The notes under the pieces: model-generated | Told to the model about the DNA's origin: nothing | Databases searched by the model: none | What the model saw: the letters and a program-made list of their open reading frames with translations, nothing else | Position numbers and translations under genes: made by a program | Assembly: GCA_035718265.1 (NCBI GenBank) | Contig: DASTHJ010000156.1 | Span: 1-35,796 of the forward strand | Length of the DNA stretch: 35,796 nucleotides | Direction: 5' to 3' | Origin: Steroidobacteraceae bacterium | GTDB taxonomy: Bacteria > Pseudomonadota > Gammaproteobacteria > Steroidobacterales > Steroidobacteraceae | Part shown: piece by piece, positions 4,084 to 29,475 of the stretch | How the letters are laid out: each line of letters opens with the position of its first letter | How positions within the stretch are numbered: position 1 is the stretch's first letter

Positions 4084-4632
4084 TCAGCGAGCCCGCGCCA
4101 TGCGGCCGGTCTGCGAGCGCTCCTTCTGGCCAGTCGGCGGCGGCATGTCGCTGTCCTCGATTTCGCTTTCGAGCTCGGCCTTGCGGGTGGCGAGCTGCTC
4201 GCCGAGCGCCTGCAGGTCCATGTCAGAGTCGCGCGACTTGCTGAACATGCCGCCCGGCTTCTCCTCTTCCTTGACGTGGTGCTTGATCATCTCGGAGAGC
4301 ACCGTCACCTTCGCGTCGAAGTAGTCGTCGTCGGGCGAGGATGCCTCGATCTCGGCGATCAGCTTCTCGGCACCGGCGTGCTCGACTTCGGCCTCGTGGT
4401 GGATGTCGGTCTCGTCGGTGGCCTCGAGGAAGGCGGGATAGAAGATCTCCTCCTCGATCTTGGTGTGGATCTTGAGCGCATTGCAGACCTGGGTCGCCAG
4501 CCGCTGCTTGCGATCCGCGTCGCGCGCCTTCTCGAATTGTTCGAACAGGTCTTCGACCGTGCGATGGTCCGCCTTCAGCAGCGCGATCGCGTCGGGGTTC
4601 TTGCCTGCTTTCGCCGGCTTTGCTCGTGCCAT
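4084..4632 (-). CDS. Hemerythrin (HHE cation-binding) domain protein
   Basis: 182 aa. Contains LLKADHRTVEDLFEQFE, H.KIEEEIFYPA and the HH.E...H/E ligand pattern, followed by an acidic C-terminal tail. Confidence 0.8.
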   Translation of the reverse strand: MARAKPAKAGKNPDAIALLKADHRTVEDLFEQFEKARDADRKQRLATQVCNALKIHTKIEEEIFYPAFLEATDETDIHHEAEVEHAGAEKLIAEIEASSPDDDYFDAKVTVLSEMIKHHVKEEEKPGGMFSKSRDSDMDLQALGEQLATRKAELESEIEDSDMPPPTGQKERSQTGRMARAR

Positions 4633-4852
4633 GGTGGGTCCTCCGTATGTGGCCTCGCCATGCTGAAGTGACCCGCGCGCTTGCGATATCGACGTTCATG
4701 CGTCCTCGACGTCAGGCGACACTCACAAGCAATGCGAGCGTTTCGCATTTCCGATCAAGCTGCGGAGCGCGCATCGCTTGCCGCCTCCTACATCGGCGGA
4801 CCCGCCACCGGTTCCTAATGTGTCCGACAGCTTCGCGTCGAAGGAGGAGGCC

Positions 4853-8962: not shown

Positions 8963-11935
<2,973 letters not shown>

Positions 11936-20705: not shown

Positions 20706-21533
20706 CTACTTGGTGGACTGGTCTTTGGGTAGTCCCAGCTTCTTGTAGAGATCGCGCCGCGCGTTCTTGTCGCCGTCGATGACCTTGTGCGCGTAGGCGG
20801 CGACTTCGAGCGCGACCGCGCGCGGCACCACGATGACGCCGTCGCCGTCGGCGACCACCACGTCGCCCGGCATCACCAGTACGCCCCCGAGCACGATCGG
20901 CCGGTTCACCGACTCCACTTCATTGCGCCCGGGGCGGATGCCGCGGCCCACCTGCTTGAGATACAGCGGCACCTTCTCGGCGATGATCTCGTCCGTGTCG
21001 CGGCAGGTGTTGCTGGTGATGACGCCCACCGCGCCGTGCAGCTTCCAGTTCATGATGTTGTTGGAGCCGATCGAGCCGACGTCGGTCTCGGGCGCCTCCT
21101 CGATCACGACCACGCTGCCTTCGCGCAGCAGCGGCACGAACGGTTCGGGCGAGCGCTGGTTGTAGAAGTCGCCCACCCACTGGTCGAACTCGGCCTCGGA
21201 ACGGCGTCCGGCCGGCGGCTGCTGCGTCGGCACGTAACGCACGGTCACCGCGATGCCGATGATGCGATGCGAGTAGTTGGTCGTGTCCTTCCACAGCGGG
21301 TGGATTTCCGGATTCACCAGCCCGATGTCCTGCAGCCCGACGAAGTCCATGCCGTCGGAGACGTCGGCGACGCGCAGGCCCTCGAAGGCCTTCAGCACTT
21401 TGCGGTCGTCTTCGAGCGAGTACACCTTGACGGGCATCAGCGTGGCGCCGCCACGCAGGGCCGCGGCGTCGTCGGCGGCGAACGTGGAGACGGTGGCGCC
21501 GAGCGCGAGCGCGGCGATCGCGATGGAACGCAT
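20706..21533 (-). CDS. RraA/HMG-aldolase-family protein with N-terminal signal peptide
   Basis: Start at MRSIAIAALALGATVSTFA|AD (21533). The C-terminal two thirds match the RraA-like pattern: VVVIEEAP..DVGSIGSNNIMNWKLHGAVGVITSNTCRDTDEI....PLY......RPGR......N.PIVLGGVLVMPGDVVVADGDGVIVVP. Confidence 0.75.
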   Translation of the reverse strand: MRSIAIAALALGATVSTFAADDAAALRGGATLMPVKVYSLEDDRKVLKAFEGLRVADVSDGMDFVGLQDIGLVNPEIHPLWKDTTNYSHRIIGIAVTVRYVPTQQPPAGRRSEAEFDQWVGDFYNQRSPEPFVPLLREGSVVVIEEAPETDVGSIGSNNIMNWKLHGAVGVITSNTCRDTDEIIAEKVPLYLKQVGRGIRPGRNEVESVNRPIVLGGVLVMPGDVVVADGDGVIVVPRAVALEVAAYAHKVIDGDKNARRDLYKKLGLPKDQSTK

Positions 21534-21603: not shown

Positions 21604-24600
21604 TCAGCGCGTCGAGATCACGAATCCGGCCCAGAAGTACGGATGCTCGTACGGCCGGGCGCCGCCGATGCGCGTGCCGCGCAGCCGCAGCTGCGAGCGG
21701 CGCAGCGCGGCCGCGGCGTCGCCGTGATGTGCGGGCAGGGCGGCGTACAACTCGTGCATGAGCCGCGCGGTGCTGCGGTCCTCGACGCGCCACAGGCTCG
21801 CGACCACGCTCGCGGCGCCGCGCCGTTGCACGATGGCGCTGAGTCCTTCGATTTCACGTCCGTCGTCGGTGACCGCGCCGCCGAGGCCGCTCTGGCATGC
21901 GGACAGCGTCACCAGCCGCAGATCCTGGAAATCGAGCGCGGCGATGGCATCCAGCGTCAGCTTCGAGCCGTCGCCGAGCAGCAGGAAGGAGCGGCGCGCG
22001 TTGCCGGGCCGCAGGTTGAAATGCGTGCCGAGGTGCAATACCGAGAAATCGCGCTCCGCGCCGAGCAGGGCCTGCAGGCGTGCGGCGGTGAATTCCGCGT
22101 CGGCGTAGCCCGCGCCGTCGAGCGCGCCGCCGCCAACGCCGGCGCGCGGGCAGGCCTTGCCGGGTATCGTCAGGCCCTCGATGGGTCCGCGCACCACGTC
22201 GCAGAGCTCGTCGGCCATGGCCGGCAGCGCCTCGTAGCCGCCCACCGCGCGCGTCAGTCCCAGTCCGCGCACCGTGAGCGCGGCGTCCTGCGCGGGCGTC
22301 GAAATCTCGCCGGCCGCCTCACCGGCTGGCGTGTACGACTCGATGACGTAGCGGTCCACCAGGTAGTGCCGGCCGTCGTGCAGCGCGGTGAACGGGATGT
22401 AGCGCAGCGCGCCGTCGAGCCACAGCACCAGCCGGTGCGCGCCGGCACGACGCGCCTCCTCGTCGAGCGGACGCGCGACCGTCGCATAGAGGCGGCGCGA
22501 CGCCTCCGTGACGTCTTCGCGCCGGCCGACAGCGTCGAGGAAGCGGCCGATGTCGCGGCGCAGGGCCGGGCCATCGACGGGCTGCTCGTATTCGAACTGG
22601 CCGCGGCTGGTCGCGATCAGCAGGCGCAGCCGCGAGTCCGTCAGCAGATAGAAGCCGAGCGCCGTGTCCGGGCCGAACGCGGCCAGCTCGTGCGCCAGCG
22701 ACTGCGCCTGGACGGCGCGCACCGCGGGCGCCGCCGGCGTCGCGCTGCCGGCCAGGAACTCGCGGATGCGCGCGTCGCGCACAGTCTCGCGCTGGCGTTG
22801 TCCGGCGAGCAGCGCCTCGAGCGCGGCGCGTTCCTCGGCGCTGATGCGATCTGAATCCCGCAGCCGGCCGAGGCGATCGATCTCGGAGCCGGCACCTTCG
22901 TCGGTGCTCATGAGCTGCAGCAGGCGCTCGCGCAGTGCGGCCTCCTGTGGCGTGAGCTCGATGCCGTCACCGCGTGTCCAGCGCGCGTCGCGCAGCACGA
23001 AGTCGTAGAGCTCCTGCGCCTTGAGCAGTCGCAGCACGTCGAGGCCCTCGTCGATGCGGCCCGCGGACATCAGCCAGTCCGCCACCGCACGGTACACGCC
23101 GACCTTGTCGGCGAGGAAGGCCTGCTCGAGACGCCGCTCGTCGCCGACCAGCCGGTCGCGCAGCCGCTCGATCTGGGCGATGGACTCCTTGCCGAAGAAG
23201 ATCGCGAGCGCGGTGTCCTGGCGCTGCCGCAGCTGGCGCGCGAGCGCGAAGTCCGCACGCCACAGGGGATCGGGCGTGCCCAGCGTGCTGGCGGCGGACA
23301 ACGCGCGGATCGCGAACGCGTAGGAAGCTTCCGCGTCGCCGCGCGCCGCCTGCAGCTCGCTCGACAGCGCGTACACGTCGTGGCGCAGCAACGGATCGGC
23401 GTCGGCCGAGGAATCGATGCGACGTGCGGCGTCGTCGCAGCTCGCGGCGACCGCCGCTTGCGCACGGATCTCGACGCCGCAGGTCTCGGCAATGGCACGC
23501 AGGATGGCCGGATGCGTGTCCGGCAGTCGTGCGCGGTACAGCGCCAGCGCCTGCGCGAGCAGCGCGGTGCCCTGGCGCGGATCGTCCGGTGCCACCAGCG
23601 TGGCGCGCGTCAGCAAGGTGGCGGCGCGCTCGATCAGCAGCTTCGGATCGTCGCCGGCGGCCTGCGAGGCGGCCTCGAGCGTGGCGCGGGCCTGCGCACG
23701 ATCGCCGAGCGCGAGCTGCAGCCGCGCGAGGCCCCGATGGTGCTCGACGATCCACGGCCGCTCCACGTCATCCGGATGTGCCTGGATGATGGCGCCGGCC
23801 CGCTCGTAGTCGTCGAGCGCGCCGGGCAGGTCGCCGAGCAGCAGTCGGGCGCCGGCCAGGTAAGTCAGCGGGCGCACCAGCACGGGCGCATCAGCGCCGC
23901 GCGTGGCCTCGCCGATGGCGACGGCGCGCGCCGCGAAGTCACGCGCCTCGACGGGCTTGCCGCGCACCAGCAGCAGACCGCCGAGGTGCGTGAGGGCGCT
24001 CAGCTGGTGGCGCTGCAGCGGCGCGCCGTCCTTGCTCTGCGCGATCTCCACCGCCTTGCGCAGCGCAGTCTCGGCGGCTTCGAACTCGTCGAGACGTTCC
24101 AGGCCCTGCCCGAGCCAGATGTAGGCGGGCACGCGCTGCGCGGCGGGGCCCGCCATGCGCTCTTCGATGCCGATCTGCTTTTCCGCATGGGCGCGCACCG
24201 CGGCGTAGTCCTCTTCGCGCCACGCGATGTTGACGTAGGTGTTCTCGATGGCCGCGGCCGCTTCGCTCACCGTCTCGCCATTCTCGACGAGGATGGCCTC
24301 GGCACGCGCCAGCGACCGCTTCGCGCCCGCGAAGTCCCGCTGGAAGGACTGGTTCTGCGCGAGGCCGACCAGCACTTTCTGCAGCTCGATCCTGCGCGGG
24401 CCTGGATTGTGCTCGCGGATGCGCAGCGCCGCCTGCCAGGCCGCGACCGCGTCGGCGTTGCGACCCTGGCGCGTGGCGATCCAGGCGTATGCGACGTGGA
24501 TTTCCGCGACTTCGGCGGCGTACGGTCCGAGTCGCCGTTCGAAGATCGGCCGCGCGAAGGCGAGCAATGGCATCGCCTCCGACATGCGGTCCATGAACGC

Positions 24601-24906
24601 GATCAGCGGCGTGCCCAGGGATCCCACCCACCAGGCCATCTCCACCGAGTCGGCGCCGCGCTCGCGCTCGACGCGCGGAATGGTCTTGCAGATCAGGGAC
24701 ACGGCCGCGTCTGGCTCGGTCTCGATGAGCTTCTCCGCGCGTGCGCGCAGCTCGGCGAACGGGGCGGTGTCGGCTCCCGGCGCGGCGACCGAGGCGAATT
24801 CGGCGCACACCGGCGGCAGGTCGAAGGCCTGCGCGTGCGGCACGCAGGCCAGCAGCGCGAGGCAGGCCCAGCCACCGGCGAACCGCCTTCGCCTGGTCCC
24901 GGTCAT
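21604..24906 (-). CDS. Exported TPR-repeat / CHAT-domain (caspase-like) protease
   Basis: 1100 aa. The N-terminus MTGTRRRRFAGGWACLALLACVPHAQA has a twin-arginine-like RRxF, a hydrophobic core and possible LLAC lipobox or AQA cleavage. It is followed by a long array of TPR-like helices. The C-terminal CHAT domain has His in VLHLGTHF (codon 22021-22023) and Cys in VTLSACQSG (codon 21895-21897), and ends HPYFWAGFVISTR. The ATG overlaps the anti-sigma stop (ATGA, 24903-24906). Confidence 0.85.
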   Translation of the reverse strand: MTGTRRRRFAGGWACLALLACVPHAQAFDLPPVCAEFASVAAPGADTAPFAELRARAEKLIETEPDAAVSLICKTIPRVERERGADSVEMAWWVGSLGTPLIAFMDRMSEAMPLLAFARPIFERRLGPYAAEVAEIHVAYAWIATRQGRNADAVAAWQAALRIREHNPGPRRIELQKVLVGLAQNQSFQRDFAGAKRSLARAEAILVENGETVSEAAAAIENTYVNIAWREEDYAAVRAHAEKQIGIEERMAGPAAQRVPAYIWLGQGLERLDEFEAAETALRKAVEIAQSKDGAPLQRHQLSALTHLGGLLLVRGKPVEARDFAARAVAIGEATRGADAPVLVRPLTYLAGARLLLGDLPGALDDYERAGAIIQAHPDDVERPWIVEHHRGLARLQLALGDRAQARATLEAASQAAGDDPKLLIERAATLLTRATLVAPDDPRQGTALLAQALALYRARLPDTHPAILRAIAETCGVEIRAQAAVAASCDDAARRIDSSADADPLLRHDVYALSSELQAARGDAEASYAFAIRALSAASTLGTPDPLWRADFALARQLRQRQDTALAIFFGKESIAQIERLRDRLVGDERRLEQAFLADKVGVYRAVADWLMSAGRIDEGLDVLRLLKAQELYDFVLRDARWTRGDGIELTPQEAALRERLLQLMSTDEGAGSEIDRLGRLRDSDRISAEERAALEALLAGQRQRETVRDARIREFLAGSATPAAPAVRAVQAQSLAHELAAFGPDTALGFYLLTDSRLRLLIATSRGQFEYEQPVDGPALRRDIGRFLDAVGRREDVTEASRRLYATVARPLDEEARRAGAHRLVLWLDGALRYIPFTALHDGRHYLVDRYVIESYTPAGEAAGEISTPAQDAALTVRGLGLTRAVGGYEALPAMADELCDVVRGPIEGLTIPGKACPRAGVGGGALDGAGYADAEFTAARLQALLGAERDFSVLHLGTHFNLRPGNARRSFLLLGDGSKLTLDAIAALDFQDLRLVTLSACQSGLGGAVTDDGREIEGLSAIVQRRGAASVVASLWRVEDRSTARLMHELYAALPAHHGDAAAALRRSQLRLRGTRIGGARPYEHPYFWAGFVISTR

Positions 24907-25451
24907 TCGCGGCTCCGGATCTCGATGCGCAGCACGCCGTCGGCCGGCTCGGGAATGGCGTGCGCCGCGAGCACCCGCCGCACTTCGGCCGACAGTGGCA
25001 GCGGCAGGTCGGCGTCGATGCCGTACACGCCGAGCGCTTCGTAGCCCGTGGCTTCGACGCCGGCGGTGTGCAGCTCGGCGAGCAGCCGGCGCTCGAGCGC
25101 CGCGGGATCATCGGCCGCGATGCGCACGATGCCGTCTTCGGCACCGCGCACGACCGGCACGGTAGATTGGCGCTGCCACTGCACGAGCAGGCCGGCGCCG
25201 AGCAACAGCACGATGCCCGCGGCCATCGGCCACTGCCAGCGCGTGCTTCCCGACCGTCGCCGCGGCAGCAGGCCCTCGTCGATCGCACGTGCGACCAGCC
25301 GCGCCTCGCGATTCGGGTCGGCGGATGCGGCGCCGGCGTGTGGGGTGGTCGCGAGCAGCGCGGCGCGCAGCGCCCGGGCTTCGTGCCGCGTGGCCGAGGT
25401 CGGCGTGTCACGTCCGGCGAGCGCGTCCAGCCATTCCTGATCGTCGTTCAT
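24903..25451 (-). CDS. Single-pass membrane protein, putative anti-sigma factor
   Basis: 182 aa. About 75-aa cytoplasmic N-terminus, one TM (WPMAAGIVLLLGAGLLV) and about 90-aa periplasmic C-terminal domain. Its position immediately after the ECF sigma gene, with an ATGA overlap (25448-25451), is the classical anti-sigma arrangement. No HxxxCxxC zinc motif. Confidence 0.55.
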   Translation of the reverse strand: MNDDQEWLDALAGRDTPTSATRHEARALRAALLATTPHAGAASADPNREARLVARAIDEGLLPRRRSGSTRWQWPMAAGIVLLLGAGLLVQWQRQSTVPVVRGAEDGIVRIAADDPAALERRLLAELHTAGVEATGYEALGVYGIDADLPLPLSAEVRRVLAAHAIPEPADGVLRIEIRSRE

Positions 25452-26041
25452 GGGGATTCCTTTCCGAAGGCGAGCTCGTACCACGGCGCGAGGTGCAGGC
25501 GCGCGCGCTTGCGGCACTGGGAAATGAATTCACGCGTGGCGCCCGGCGAGCGGTCGAGCAACGCCGCGATCTCCTCGTGCGAGAGCCCATCGGCGGCGAT
25601 CCAGGAAATCACGGCCGCATGACTCGGCGCCGCGTCTTCGAACTTTCTCCAGCATTCCTGGAAGCATTGCGCGAGCTGCGCGCGACGCAGCTCGTCGGGC
25701 GGCGTCGCGACTTCGTGCCGCGACAGCTCCGCGATGCGCGCGGCCAGCTCGCCGTTCATCGGATCGCCATCGTCGAAGGGTTGCTCGCGGCGCTGGCGGC
25801 GCAGTGCATCGAGCACGGTGTGGCGCAGCACGGCCTCGATCCACGGCAGCAGCTCGGAGTCACCGTGGAAGGTCGCACAGCGCTGCCAGACCTTGATGAA
25901 GGTCTCCTGCACGAGATCGCGCGCCGCGTCGGCGCTGCGCACGGCGCGCAGCGCGCGTGCCTGCAGCACGCCGAAGAACTCGCGATCGAGACGGCGCAGG
26001 GCCTGCTCGAGGGCGGCGCCACCTTCGCGGCAGGCCCGCAT
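25448..26041 (-). CDS. ECF-type RNA polymerase sigma-70 family factor
   Basis: 197 aa from MRACREGG (26041). Region 2 reads ARDLVQETFIKVWQR...F.G.S.LLPWI..VLRHTVLDALRRQ. Region 4 HTH reads ISWIAADGLSHEEIAALLDRSPGATREFISQCRKRARLHL. The start is uncertain by a few codons. Confidence 0.85.
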   Translation of the reverse strand: MRACREGGAALEQALRRLDREFFGVLQARALRAVRSADAARDLVQETFIKVWQRCATFHGDSELLPWIEAVLRHTVLDALRRQRREQPFDDGDPMNGELAARIAELSRHEVATPPDELRRAQLAQCFQECWRKFEDAAPSHAAVISWIAADGLSHEEIAALLDRSPGATREFISQCRKRARLHLAPWYELAFGKESP

Positions 26042-26255
26042 GAAGACGTTCTTGTCCAGAAACACCCCGATGGCGCGGTGGACCGCGCTCGTTCTGCGGC
26101 AAGCGTACCGTACGCCGACTGATGTGCAACCGGAGCATCCATGTGCAAGAGACGCGCCGCCCGCCCGTACGTCAGGCCGGGGCCGCAACCCTGACGTTTT
26201 CCGGCGGGCGGCGTCTTTAGGCGAAACAACCAGAACCGACCGAGGGGAGAGACCG

Positions 26256-26537
26256 ATGAACCTGCGAAACGTCCTGTACTTCGACGCGATGCTGACCCCG
26301 AAGGTCATCACCGTGGTCTATTGGCTGTTGCTGCTGGCCTGCGTGATCGCCGGCCTCGGCACCTTGTTCTATACGGGCTTCCAGTACATGTCCTTCGGCA
26401 CCTTCGTGCGCGCCATCGGCATCACGCTGGGCGGCGCGATCGCCGCGCGCATCTGGTGCGAGCTGATGATCGTGCTGTTCAAGCTCAATGAAAACGTGCA
26501 GCGCCTGGCCGCCGTGCCCGCGCAGGAGCGGAGGTGA
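26256..26537 (+). CDS. Small two-TM membrane protein, DUF4282-like
   Basis: 93 aa. Reads LYFDAMLTPKVITVVYWLLLL....G......G..........G.....R...E..IV.F....N, the DUF4282 pattern. The RBS-like GGGGAGAG lies upstream of the ATG at 26256. Confidence 0.65.
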   Translation: MNLRNVLYFDAMLTPKVITVVYWLLLLACVIAGLGTLFYTGFQYMSFGTFVRAIGITLGGAIAARIWCELMIVLFKLNENVQRLAAVPAQERR

Positions 26538-26540
26538 GTC

Positions 26541-27512
26541 ATGCGTTGCCATGCATGGATCCCGGCGATCGTCGCAGCGGCTGCGGTCGCCGCCTGCGGG
26601 GGCCCGCCCGCGGGCAACCCGGCCGCGAAGACTGGCAGTGAGCGCCAGCCGCGAAAAGGCGAAGCCACCGCCGAGCAGGTGGCCGAGGAGGCGCGCGGCG
26701 ATGTCGCTTGCCCGGCCGACGTCGATACCCCGCCGCGTGCCGCGAACGCGCCGGTCGACGACGTGGTCGGCGTGCGCCCCGGACTCACGTTCGAGGAGGC
26801 CGCGAACGTCGTGATGTGCACCGGCGACCTTCTGGTGGTCGTGCCGGACACTTCGGCGCGCTTCAACATCCAGACCTACGGCGCGACGCTGCGGCAGGGA
26901 TTCAGCGCGCGTTTTGCCGAGCCGCGCGTCGTCAAGGACTCGCGCGACTACATGCGCGAGATGTCGGAGGACTTCGCGGCGCGCTCCGGCAACGCCGTGC
27001 GCGAGGACATGAAGCCGGGCCAGGCGAAGTGGTACGTCTCGACCATGGGAATGCCGGGCGCCGAGCGCGTCATCGCCGCGGCGCGCGAGGAGTGGTTTGC
27101 CGAGGGCCGCAATCCCACCATGCAGGGCGTGGCCGATGCGCTCGTCAAGAAGTACGGCGAGCCTACGCGCCGGCACGTCATGCCGCAGCAGATCATGCTG
27201 ACCTGGGTACACGATCCCCAGGGAAGGTTCGTACCCGAGACCTCGCCGATGGCCATGCGCTGCACGCCGATGTCGGATCCGGATGGCGGTACGAACTTCT
27301 CGCCCGACTGCGGCATCGTGGTCGCGGCGCGCGTGGATCCGACGCGTGAGAATCCTGCGCTGGCGCGCTCGATGTCCGTGGGCGTGGTCGACCAGGCCGG
27401 CGGCTACGAGCTCATCACCCAGACCGAGCAGACGCTGCAAAGCGGCGAAATGCAACGGCGCCAGCAGGAAGTGGAGCACGCCGCCCGGAACGCGGACCAG
27501 CCGCAGCTGTAG
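26541..27512 (+). CDS. Lipoprotein, function unknown
   Basis: 323 aa. Signal peptide with lipobox ...AAAVAAC|GG. Starts 3 nt after the DUF4282 stop. Globular, non-repetitive composition. No family recognised. Confidence 0.6.
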   Translation: MRCHAWIPAIVAAAAVAACGGPPAGNPAAKTGSERQPRKGEATAEQVAEEARGDVACPADVDTPPRAANAPVDDVVGVRPGLTFEEAANVVMCTGDLLVVVPDTSARFNIQTYGATLRQGFSARFAEPRVVKDSRDYMREMSEDFAARSGNAVREDMKPGQAKWYVSTMGMPGAERVIAAAREEWFAEGRNPTMQGVADALVKKYGEPTRRHVMPQQIMLTWVHDPQGRFVPETSPMAMRCTPMSDPDGGTNFSPDCGIVVAARVDPTRENPALARSMSVGVVDQAGGYELITQTEQTLQSGEMQRRQQEVEHAARNADQPQL

Positions 27513-27521
27513 GAGCACCAC

Positions 27522-28226
27522 ATGCGCGCCCTGTATCCATGCCTCGTCGCGATGCTCGCTGCCGGATGCGGTGAGTCGCCATTGCCGGTTGCCGACGCCA
27601 ATGCGTCGGCTGCCGCGCCGGGCTCCGCAGCTCGCCCGATGCAAGCGGCGAGCTCGGTCTTCGCCGGACGCACGGCCGAGCTCGTGAATCCGGACGACAC
27701 CACGATGGTGTTGTTGTACTTCGACCTCGCGGGACTGCCGGCGCCGATCGAGCCGTCCCTGGAAGACGACATGCGCGTGCGCATGGCACTGCCCGCCGAC
27801 AAGCCCGCGCAGCGCGAAGCCGTGCGCCGGCAGCTCGAGGCCGGACTCGCGGGCGTGCGCGAGGTGGGCGCGATCCGCCTGTCGATGCGCGCGGACCTCG
27901 GCGAGTACGACCCGACGTATGGTGAGTTCACGGTGCGTGCGCTGGCGCCGAGCTCCATGGTCGAGTACCGCGCGCTTGGCCAGAAGGTGGCGCTGAAATT
28001 CGGCAATGCGCGCAGCGCGCAGGTGTGGCGCGTGCCCGCGCAGGAGGCACAGGCCGTGCGCGACCGCCTCGGATACTCGCGCGATGTCTCGCTGGATGCG
28101 CTGCTGGCCATCCGTGACGTCCATGCCGCGCCCGAGGGCGGCACCATCACCGTCAACGTCGTCGAATACGAACTGCGCGAGACGCGCGGCGGCAGCCTGC
28201 TGGGCCGCGTGCATCTGGCGCCATGA
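27522..28226 (+). CDS. Lipoprotein, function unknown
   Basis: 234 aa. MRALYPCLVAMLAAGC|GE lipobox. Starts 9 nt after the preceding stop. Its stop overlaps a possible start of the next gene (ATGA at 28223-28226). Confidence 0.6.
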   Translation: MRALYPCLVAMLAAGCGESPLPVADANASAAAPGSAARPMQAASSVFAGRTAELVNPDDTTMVLLYFDLAGLPAPIEPSLEDDMRVRMALPADKPAQREAVRRQLEAGLAGVREVGAIRLSMRADLGEYDPTYGEFTVRALAPSSMVEYRALGQKVALKFGNARSAQVWRVPAQEAQAVRDRLGYSRDVSLDALLAIRDVHAAPEGGTITVNVVEYELRETRGGSLLGRVHLAP

Positions 28227-28240
28227 CCCAGGGGATCCTC

Positions 28241-29419
28241 ATGCGTTTTCAAAACTTCATCGTCAGCTCCGCCCTCGGCTTCGCGTTGCTCATCACCCAG
28301 GCACATGCCGCCGCTCCGAAGTGCGCACAGTCCGCCTGCGTGGACACGCGCAGCTTCGTCGCCAGCGTCACGGGCTTTCGCGCCAGCAAGCAGGGTTCGC
28401 GCCGCGTGCTCACCGCGACGGTGCGCTTCGAGAACAAGACCGCGAAGCCGCTGACCCTGGGCTACGTCAGCGCCTCCGGCGTCGCGCTCGATGAACTCGG
28501 CAACCGCTACGAGGTGCCCGGCGCGAATGGCGTGCGCGCCATCGGCGAGATCAACGGGCAGAACTTCGATCCGAAATTCACGCTGGCGCCGGGCGAGGGC
28601 GCCGATGCACGCTTCGAATTGAGCTGGGAGCCCGGCAAGGCCAAGGCGGGCTCGAGCTACGAGCTGGATCTCGCGATCCGCGAGATCACGCCGAGCGGCG
28701 CGGAGCAATTCAAGCTCGGCGCGGAGCACGCGTTGCATTTTGCCTCGCTCGGGCAGAGCACGGCCGCGACTCCTGCCGCTGCGGCCACCGCGACGGCGCC
28801 GGCAGCGCCGGCCGATCCCTGCGGTGGCTCCGCTCGCTGCTTCAACGCGGGCACTTTCGTCGCCGAGGTCATGCAGGTGCAATCGAGTGCCATGACGGCC
28901 GGCGCGCGCCACCAGTCCGTCAGCATCAACATCCGCTTCCGCAACATCAGCGACAAGCCGCTGATCCTGGGGTACCGCTCGGCCTCGAGCGCGGCGCTGG
29001 ACAATTTCGGCAATGGCTTCACCTGGGGACGGCCCGGCACGCACGACACCAGCGTCAAGGGCATCGGCATGGTCACGGCGCGCAGCGCGGACACGCAGTT
29101 CGCGCTGTCGCCCGGGCAGTCCCGCAACGCCACGTTCGGCATCATCCGTTTCAATGCCACGCCACCCATCGGCGATCGCTGGAATTACGACGTGGTCATC
29201 GAGGAGGTCGAGATCCAGCCGGGGCAGGTCGTCAAGTCCGTGCGGCAGAACAGCCTGAGCTTCCCGAACCTGTCCGCCGGCACGTTCGCGGCCGCCTCGG
29301 GCGGAGCGGCCGCCGCGGTGGGCGCGGCGCTGGGCTCGGAGACGCCGCCCGACGCCAACGCCGTGGCGAGCAAGCTCATCGATCTGTTCGAACGGAAGAC
29401 CAGCAAGAAAAAGAAGTAG
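28241..29419 (+). CDS. Secreted protein with two tandem DUF4352-like beta-sandwich domains and Lys-rich tail
   Basis: 392 aa from MRFQNFIVSSALGFALLITQAHA (alternative ATG at 28223). Clear internal duplication: CAQSACVDTRSFVASV...VRFENKTAKPLTLGYVSASGVALDELGNRYE versus CGGSARCFNAGTFVAEV...IRFRNISDKPLILGYRSASSAALDNFGNGFT. The two copies are separated by an Ala/Pro/Thr linker. The tail ends KTSKKKK. Confidence 0.65.
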   Translation: MRFQNFIVSSALGFALLITQAHAAAPKCAQSACVDTRSFVASVTGFRASKQGSRRVLTATVRFENKTAKPLTLGYVSASGVALDELGNRYEVPGANGVRAIGEINGQNFDPKFTLAPGEGADARFELSWEPGKAKAGSSYELDLAIREITPSGAEQFKLGAEHALHFASLGQSTAATPAAAATATAPAAPADPCGGSARCFNAGTFVAEVMQVQSSAMTAGARHQSVSINIRFRNISDKPLILGYRSASSAALDNFGNGFTWGRPGTHDTSVKGIGMVTARSADTQFALSPGQSRNATFGIIRFNATPPIGDRWNYDVVIEEVEIQPGQVVKSVRQNSLSFPNLSAGTFAAASGGAAAAVGAALGSETPPDANAVASKLIDLFERKTSKKKK

Positions 29420-29475
29420 GAGAGTCGCGAAAACCCGCGAAAACAGCCCGCAGCTGCGGTGGTTGCGGCGCTTTA

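Follow-up and report, generated by a model that had tools for sequence, protein, structure and literature searches.

The window analysed here is a whole stretch of 35,796 nucleotides from contig DASTHJ010000156.1 of a Steroidobacteraceae bacterium (assembly GCA_035718265.1). Its G+C content is about 69%, and its nearest relatives are metagenome-assembled genomes (MAGs) labelled Steroidobacteraceae. Three genes on its minus strand encode a sigma factor of the extracytoplasmic function (ECF) type, a 182-residue single-pass membrane protein and an exported protein of 1100 residues that combines tetratricopeptide repeats (TPR) with a CHAT protease domain. A divergent intergenic region of 214 bp (26042-26255, counting the sigma start as ATG 26041) separates them from a plus-strand operon for envelope proteins. 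The central features are:

25448..26041, minus strand: ECF (group IV) sigma factor with 197 aa; Pfam and NCBIfam matches; counted from ATG 26041
24903..25451, minus strand: candidate anti-sigma factor, 182 aa, with a single transmembrane segment; ATGA overlaps on both sides, AlphaFold2 (AF2) model, alignment A1
21604..24906, minus strand: exported TPR-CHAT caspase-fold protease, 1100 aa; Pfam matches, signal peptide, AF2 model
26150..26176, minus strand: ECF-type promoter CCTGAC-N16-CGTCT toward the sigma operon; exact match
26190..26216, plus strand: ECF-type promoter CCTGAC-N16-CGTCT toward the DUF4282/lipoprotein operon; exact match

A conserved triad of sigma factor, membrane protein and TPR-CHAT genes

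An earlier note on this DNA, made by a model from the letters and a list of open reading frames, had chained the three minus-strand genes by ATGA stop/start overlaps. Direct reading of the sequence confirms the gene positions and both overlaps, at 25448-25451 between the sigma factor and the 182-aa protein and at 24903-24906 between the latter and the CHAT protein. Of the domains for which that note had proposed profile searches, CHAT, TPR, Sigma70_r2/r4 and DUF4282 were matched in Pfam, and DUF4352 was not.

The conservation of this arrangement was followed in 28 loci, which were obtained by a one-genome-per-species scan using the membrane protein; every genome match belongs to an uncultured MAG. 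The three genes are adjacent on one strand in all 28 genome loci as far as their DNA reaches (in L031 the contig stops before the sigma gene). The same adjacency is seen in three long metagenome contigs and in 3/3 loci that were reached independently via the CHAT protein. The synteny that the earlier note had wished to see examined in related genomes is thus complete. In 28/28 loci, the stop codon of the membrane protein and the start codon of CHAT share an ATGA or GTGA, and the junction between sigma factor and membrane protein is overlapping in most of them. The genes on either side of the triad change between loci, so that the three genes behave as an autonomous cassette, which is conserved across uncultured Steroidobacteraceae-like bacteria. 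PADLOC gave no match for any of the seven products of the three minus-strand and four plus-strand genes, and a reading of the region as a defence island was dropped for this reason.

By its domain content, the 197-aa protein belongs to the ECF (group IV) sigma factors. It matches Sigma70_r2 (E 2e-11), Sigma70_ECF (E 2e-5) and r4_2 (E 3e-4) in Pfam and reaches 59.4 bits against the NCBIfam sigma70-ECF superfamily model TIGR02937 (cut-off 42.9), while none of the NCBIfam equivalog models is reached. The solved structures closest to it are RpoE-type ECF sigma factors, and its identity across the 28 loci is 59-91%. The main text of the ECF classification paper by Casas-Pastor (2021) does not mention CHAT. 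A separate observation concerns the start of the sigma gene. The sequence NTG-GAC-AAG, with a GGGG ribosome-binding site, is conserved at all loci 24 nt upstream of the sigma ATG; its start-like codon is CTG in the window (26063-26065, minus strand) and TTG or GTG elsewhere. The true start of the sigma factor may therefore be this non-ATG codon, which would add eight residues.

The membrane protein and the exported TPR-CHAT protein

The AlphaFold model of the 182-aa protein begins with three short N-terminal helices (residues 2-12, 20-35 and 46-58), which are followed by an RRR cluster and, just behind it, one transmembrane helix (residues 74-94, ~25170-25232). The C-terminal periplasmic domain (residues ~100-182, 24906-25154) has a beta-alpha-beta-beta-alpha-beta order, and its folded part (residues 108-180) is modelled by AF2 with a predicted local distance difference test (pLDDT) value of ~97. 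In alignment A1, a DDxxWLDALAGR motif is conserved near the N-terminus, and in the segment that connects the membrane with the folded domain, Arg102 alone is invariant. A collection of 5.8 billion proteins holds 171 relatives, all unnamed and without Pfam domains. With a profile of 23 relatives, a search of 1.84 billion representatives retrieved 759 clusters (50% identity). The best 150 of these 759 representatives are 90-254 aa long and share a single architecture, and none of the 150 is a Rosetta-stone fusion of the membrane protein with a protease.

The gene lies directly 3' of the sigma gene, overlaps it and encodes a protein with a single transmembrane helix and an N-terminus on the inside, as is typical of the context of anti-sigma genes. 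The homology searches weigh against this identification. The 182-aa protein has no match in Pfam, in NCBIfam, in the PDB sequence-profile search or among Foldseek folds, and even at Pfam E-values up to 10 only 2/23 members of the family touch a model, DUF3379 (E 0.027). No recognisable anti-sigma domain (zf-HC2, RskA, RseA_N and similar) was found in it, hhalign against RseA of Escherichia coli returned 0.4% probability, that is, no similarity, and alignment A1 contains no HxxxCxxC or other Cys-His zinc motif. Anti-sigma identity by homology was dropped after the negative outcome of the Pfam, PDB profile, Foldseek and hhalign comparisons. Because model, structure, fold and RseA searches are all negative, the assignment rests on position, co-translation with the sigma factor and topology, and on this basis the protein is a candidate for the cognate anti-sigma factor. 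Its relatives are correspondingly a candidate for an undescribed, unannotated anti-sigma-like family without a Pfam model.

The neighbourhood of more remote relatives bears on the same question. In a distant branch of the family (the JGI contigs with P0380 and P0382), an HtrA-type Trypsin-PDZ gene lies upstream of the membrane protein and a 700-aa Peptidase_C14 (caspase-type) gene downstream. Further upstream follow a CHAT protein on the P0382 contig and a 1007-aa TPR protein together with an ECF sigma factor on the P0380 contig. Since Peptidase_C14, CHAT and HtrA genes thus neighbour the distant homologues, with an ECF sigma factor upstream, the tie of the family to caspase-fold proteases outlasts changes in gene order. 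The 182-aa protein could conceivably be a membrane anchor, a chaperone or a securin-like inhibitor of the caspase-fold protease, with the sigma factor controlled by other means, for example by transcription only. This would agree with the missing similarity to any anti-sigma domain and with the distant branch, where the homologue sits beside protease genes several genes away from the ECF sigma factor, whose start is overlapped by another small gene. However, we consider such a role quite improbable: in all 28 close loci the gene comes directly after the sigma gene, mostly with overlapping codons, and three cytoplasmic helices plus one transmembrane helix are the layout of short anti-sigma domains, such as the three-helix bundle of DdvA from Myxococcus xanthus.

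The third gene encodes a protein in which several Pfam TPR families (residues 146-430) precede a CHAT domain (PF12770, residues 801-1098, 21613-22506; E 4e-53). Its N-terminus is a signal peptide (residues 1-27, 24826-24906), and all orthologues likewise start with a signal peptide, which is followed by the mature N-terminus (F/Y/V)(D/E)LPPxC; signal peptides, and also the lipoboxes mentioned below, were read by eye. As the signal peptide is conserved, the protein is exported, in line with the earlier note, whose proposal hinged on its not being cytoplasmic. Export by the Tat pathway was considered and dropped: the twin-arginine-like RRRRF motif of the window protein is not conserved in the orthologues, which makes Sec export the likelier route.

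The catalytic motifs of the window protein are LHLGTHF, containing H958 and H962 (H962 codon at 22021-22023), and TLSACQS, containing C1004 (codon at 21895-21897). In the form LHxGTHF and TLSxC(Q/E)(S/T), they are invariant, including H958, H962 and C1004, in 28 sequences, whose identity to the window protein is 51-88%. Both the domain and the catalytic His and Cys thus place the protein in the CHAT protease family. Six further cysteines are also invariant and occur as three sequence-adjacent pairs, from which we infer that they suit disulfide bonds in the oxidising periplasm.

The AF2 model of the 1100-aa protein (mean pLDDT 79, predicted template modelling score (pTM) 0.64) shows a solenoid of about 34 helices (residues ~32-720), followed by an alpha/beta domain. 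Against the PDB, Foldseek matched it best to separase (E 4e-10) and further to the periplasmic portion of DdvA (8rw5, E 4e-7) and to the craspase protease Csx29 (E 5e-7), with low global template modelling scores of 0.2-0.45 and with a contribution of the TPR solenoid to the matches. A sequence link to DdvA, to its partner DdvS or to craspase was also considered, with negative results from phmmer and from the 28-sequence profile against the PDB; the PDB sequence searches with the CHAT protein returned only TPR matches, to kinesin light chain. The kinship with DdvA and craspase therefore lies at the level of architecture and fold and not of close homology. Its signal peptide, its His/Cys dyad and the match to 8rw5 nevertheless place the protein among periplasmic TPR-CHAT proteins of the separase/craspase type.

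Three segments near the active site deserve separate mention. Residues 961-982 (21961-22026, minus strand), which read HFxLRPGNAxRSFLxLGDGS directly after the catalytic His, are near-invariant and modelled with a pLDDT below 50, and the loops 926-939 and 1010-1017 are likewise conserved with low pLDDT. To judge from the model, these may be mobile regulatory or substrate loops.

Promoters and the divergent envelope-protein operon

The motif that stands out in the aligned sigma-upstream regions of all loci is CCTGAC-N16-CGTCT. Exactly two perfect copies are present in the window, back to back in the intergenic region, and the plus-strand copy ends 39 nt before the ATG of the DUF4282 gene. The following counts refer to 28 sequences with upstream DNA, namely 27 loci and the window. 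In 23/28 sequences, an exact forward copy with a 16-nt spacer precedes the sigma ATG by 74-123 nt, and an exact reverse copy is also present in 23/28; among the other loci, most show near-matches, a spacer of 17 nt or a pair that is displaced. For the shorter pattern CCTGAC-N16-CGTC, 46 matches fall into the short sigma-upstream regions, compared with 13 in the other ~500 kb. The motif recurs in the loci derived from the CHAT protein and in the distant locus L032, where four copies with N16 spacing surround the sigma locus. Whatever the locus, the reverse copy is directed at genes for lipoproteins or secreted proteins, including ones without relation to the operon in the window.

An alternative view of the pair as an inverted repeat, ACGTCAGG...CCTGACGT, serving as the operator of a dimeric regulator was rejected. 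The halves lie as little as 1 nt apart in L011 and over 100 nt apart in L001, whereas the spacing of each half to its own CGTC(T) is exactly 16 nt. The variable separation of the copies, together with their constant spacers, argues for two promoters and against one palindromic operator. With a conserved -35 element, a CGT-type -10 element and fixed spacing, the pair has the geometry expected of autoregulatory ECF promoters, as far as sequence can tell, and it supports autoregulation of the sigma factor and direct control of the divergent operon. The suggestion of the earlier note that this operon is the regulon output gains weight from the common motif upstream of both transcription units.

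A second element is located in the stretch from the ECF promoter to the start of the sigma gene:

26102..26129, minus strand: TTGCAC-N16-TACGCT; conserved

It is unique in the window, has no match in 100 shuffles and is found at the matching place in eight non-redundant loci. A scan of the region with a strict sigma-70 consensus gave no match, TTGCAC-N16-TACGCT included, and the element is therefore only a weak promoter candidate, which may act as a weak basal promoter of the housekeeping (sigma-70) type.

Several further occurrences of the ECF motif were noted. In the window, a third copy, CCTGAC-N16-CGTCG, with one mismatch in the -10 element, lies at 4690-4716 (minus strand), 58 nt upstream of a gene for a hemerythrin-domain protein (4084-4632, minus strand; Pfam E 3e-12), and an orthologous copy with the matching flank TTGTGAGT is present in L007 (4406-4431). 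The hemerythrin-domain gene, about 21 kb away from the cassette, may hence be a further member of the regulon. Extra copies around 3200-3521 in L010 (minus strand) and at 13918-13943 in L028 (plus strand) are placed to drive a family of small secreted proteins (FRGDWVPAxAxCxSPLRFRV...) with no relation to the operon of the window; the L028 gene is located just downstream of the CHAT gene. In L001, the gap between the back-to-back -35 boxes is exactly the site of an insertion of about 110 bp (9163-9273), whose perfect inverted-repeat arms of 40 bp consist of GGAAAGCGGGATGGGAAAAAGGGGACAGATCTATTTTTCG and its complement. This insertion resembles a miniature mobile element, and a Y1_Tnp transposase gene is found beside the operon at that locus.

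The operon on the other side of the intergenic region comprises four genes and ends with a hairpin:

26256..26537, plus strand: DUF4282 small membrane protein with two transmembrane segments, first gene of the operon; Pfam E 2e-15; in 6/28 loci
26541..27512, plus strand: lipoprotein LP1, 323 aa, lipobox AVAAC; open reading frame and N-terminus
27522..28226, plus strand: lipoprotein LP2, 234 aa, lipobox LAAGC; open reading frame and N-terminus
28223..29419, plus strand: secreted tandem-repeat protein, 398 aa; alignment A3
29448..29468, plus strand: terminator-like hairpin ending the operon

The tight spacing described in the earlier note, with gaps of 3 nt and 9 nt and an ATGA at 28223-28226, was found as stated, as was the DUF4282 domain; to judge from its orthologues, the last gene likely starts at ATG 28241 rather than at 28223. 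LP1 and LP2 have no Pfam or NCBIfam match. A homologue of LP1 lies divergent from the sigma gene in 11/28 loci, and the two lipoproteins are present in about 11-13/28. In alignment A3, the 398-aa protein consists of two tandem beta-rich repeats, each of which opens with a conserved Cys pair: C34 (90%) and C39 (invariant) in the first, C200 and C206 (both invariant) in the second. It belongs to no Pfam family and has no PDB sequence match. The earlier description of a secreted protein with two tandem repeats thus holds, but its DUF4352 label does not: the domain was rejected since Pfam gave no such match at E up to 1 in 17 orthologues. With homologues in 19/28 loci, the 398-aa protein is the most widely retained member of the operon. 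The expected co-occurrence of the operon with the triad was therefore found in part of the loci; it is clade-specific and not universal, as the 6/28 for DUF4282 illustrate.

A tRNA-Val follows the terminator-like hairpin. On the other flank of the cassette, the window contains a protein of the RraA-like/aldolase family (20706-21533, minus strand; Pfam E 3e-20) that seems to begin with a signal peptide, MRSIAIAALALGATVSTFAADD, an uncommon feature in this family; homologues occur near the cassette in L005 and L007 at differing positions.

The promoter arrangement also allows the CHAT protein to be seen as an output of the system, namely as a periplasmic effector protease acting on envelope substrates, such as the divergent lipoproteins and the tandem-repeat protein, or on foreign proteins, while the sigma factor and the anti-sigma candidate sense something else. 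The CHAT gene is positioned downstream of the autoregulated ECF promoter and would itself be a regulon member, all other targets are envelope proteins, and the contact of CHAT with the anti-sigma factor is a proposal. We nonetheless regard an effector role as unlikely. CHAT is the only invariant partner of the sigma factor and the membrane protein, whereas every other target varies between clades, and both its universal start-stop overlap with the anti-sigma gene and two published precedents for TPR-CHAT proteins with ECF sigma factors point to a regulatory function.

Proposed mechanism and comparison with known systems

These precedents also put out of date the statement of the earlier note that no ECF pathway gated by a CHAT protease is known. 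In M. xanthus, DdvA is an anti-sigma factor that carries a periplasmic TPR-CHAT module in the same polypeptide and partners with DdvS (PMC11506125). The module blocks RseP, and its removal exposes DdvA to this protease; according to the proposal made there, DdvA cleaves itself in response to a signal, and this is the site-1 step (PMC11506125). Catalytic mutants of DdvA were uninformative in unperturbed cells (PMC11506125). DdvA is called the only characterised anti-sigma factor of its type by the authors, who searched solely for fused forms and met with these in Myxococcota and in a single Comamonas (PMC11506125). Type III-E CRISPR systems provide a second case: cleavage of Csx30 by the TPR-CHAT protease Csx29 relieves the inhibition of the ECF-like CASP-sigma (PMC10028731). 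In addition, CHAT, subtilase and carboxypeptidase genes are found in the conserved neighbourhood of ECF54, which is described as being without an anti-sigma factor and for which proteolytic control has been proposed (review PMC8999054).

Against this background, we propose that the triad is a self-contained ECF signalling cassette in which a separate TPR-CHAT protease gates the release of the sigma factor by cutting the anti-sigma factor, a proposition whose chances we see as evenly balanced. The sigma factor would recognise CCTGAC-N16-CGTCT; one copy would drive its own operon, resulting in positive autoregulation, and the back-to-back copy would drive the divergent envelope-protein operon. 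The 182-aa protein would be the cognate anti-sigma factor, holding the sigma factor with its three short cytoplasmic helices, while its periplasmic domain of 80 residues would be the regulated end. By translational coupling, the Sec-exported and catalytically competent TPR-CHAT protein would be made in a fixed proportion to it. A ligand bound by the TPR solenoid would activate the His/Cys site of the CHAT domain, and the activated protease would cut the anti-sigma factor on its periplasmic side, possibly close to the membrane in the vicinity of the invariant Arg102. What is left of the anti-sigma factor would then become a substrate of the general site-2 protease RseP and of cytoplasmic proteases, by which the sigma factor would be freed. 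In its overall design, the cassette would correspond to a DdvA divided over two polypeptides, and its output would be envelope lipoproteins in place of defence genes.

The order and conservation of the genes, the intact dyad, the export signal, the fold class and the common promoter motif are shown here; we infer the binding of sigma factor and anti-sigma factor, the contact of the protease with the latter, the cleavage and its site, the involvement of RseP and the signal. Direct cleavage is favoured because the dyad is under strict selection, because the genes are coupled everywhere, and because both published TPR-CHAT/ECF systems cleave, or are proposed to cleave, the inhibitor of the sigma factor. 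Cleavage of the anti-sigma factor by the CHAT protease as the site-1 step, which the earlier note had suggested, is thus plausible, and the interpretation given in that note is supported in part. The most specific version, in which the TPR-CHAT protein is a dedicated caspase-fold site-1 protease acting in trans on a new anti-sigma family and cutting near Arg102 after its TPR has bound an envelope or foreign ligand, is tentative and somewhat doubtful as a whole.

Next to the missing homology of the 182-aa protein and the low scores of the fold matches, several other points weigh against this mechanism. The loci were mostly picked through the membrane protein, and the co-occurrence of the three genes is consequently conditional on it. 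About one locus in three lacks the divergent operon. Even in DdvA, self-cleavage through the CHAT domain is a hypothesis (PMC11506125). Moreover, an HtrA-type gene adjoins the CHAT gene in one close locus of the 28, where a 324-aa Trypsin_2-PDZ (DegS/HtrA-like) protein is encoded directly after it (L002/L008, 13908-14882), and in the distant branch such a gene lies right before the membrane protein. Since HtrA-type genes neighbour CHAT in the one case and the membrane protein in the other, a DegS-like site-1 protease is a live alternative.

In that case, the TPR-CHAT protein might be a co-anti-sigma factor or shield, which binds the small periplasmic domain and blocks RseP by adding too much bulk, until a signal leads to its release or self-cutting, while an HtrA/DegS-type protease performs the site-1 step. 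Such a role is matched by DdvA, for which loss of the TPR-CHAT domain suffices for exposure to RseP, and by RseB, which shields RseA in this way; the HtrA-like genes of L002/L008 and of the distant branch would supply the protease, and translational coupling is also what a stoichiometric complex would call for. Its probability is nevertheless low in our estimate, as the HtrA gene adjoins in only one of 28 close loci and the invariant dyad shows that proteolysis matters, although the target could be the CHAT protein itself.

The idea that a periplasmic TPR-CHAT module opens an ECF switch has so far rested on DdvA alone, in which the protease and its presumed substrate are fused. The present cassette appears to be a split version of the DdvA design, with three genes and with the function divided between two proteins, which is undescribed in such form. 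Because protease and presumed substrate are separate proteins, the hypothesis of a caspase-fold site-1 protease becomes directly testable, and a two-protein version would let the roles of shielding and cutting be told apart. If the proposal is true, it would provide the first separable protease/substrate pair of its kind in ECF signalling and would give the membrane-protein family a wider link to caspase-type proteases of the periplasm, of the CHAT as well as the Peptidase_C14 kind. A sizeable unannotated anti-sigma-like family, the promoter motif of its sigma factor, which could serve as a reporter and possibly as an orthogonal ECF part, and a small envelope regulon are usable now.

The closest parallel is DdvA-DdvS. 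Both systems have an ECF sigma factor, a single-pass anti-sigma factor (here the candidate) with a short cytoplasmic domain of three helices and a periplasmic TPR-CHAT module with a His/Cys dyad, and they share a proposed logic in which CHAT is the gate or the site-1 step ahead of RseP. In contrast to DdvA, two genes for proteins of 182 aa and 1100 aa are present here in all loci, and CHAT has its own signal peptide. The candidate anti-sigma factor lacks the zinc (CHCC) motif and has an extra small periplasmic domain, and sequence searches detect no similarity of the cassette proteins to DdvA or DdvS. As targets, the cassette has lipoproteins and secreted proteins (without a PADLOC match) and not CBASS or CRISPR-Cas, and the hosts are Steroidobacteraceae-like Gammaproteobacteria.

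With craspase, the cassette shares the fold class of the TPR-CHAT protease and an ECF-like sigma factor that activates promoters of its own locus after cleavage of an inhibitor, which for the cassette is a proposal. Craspase is, however, cytoplasmic, RNA-guided and bound to Cas7-11, and Csx30 is soluble and unrelated to the membrane protein described here; no CRISPR genes, including those for Cas7-11, Csx30 and Csx31, were found in the window or in the related loci. The RpoE-RseA-RseB system of E. coli resembles the cassette in its operon of sigma factor, anti-sigma factor and periplasmic regulator, its autoregulated ECF promoter, its envelope regulon and its single-pass anti-sigma factor, the periplasmic part of which must go first, as we propose here. 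It differs in that its third gene encodes RseB, whereas the third gene of the cassette encodes a caspase-fold protease; RseA has no similarity to the 182-aa protein, and the window contains no DegS or RseP gene. ECF54 likewise combines an ECF sigma factor with a genomically linked CHAT-domain protein, but in the cassette a candidate anti-sigma factor is always present. TPR-CHAT proteins thus accompany ECF sigma factors in three unrelated settings, craspase, DdvA and the present cassette, which suggests a general pairing of caspase-fold proteases with the release of sigma factors.

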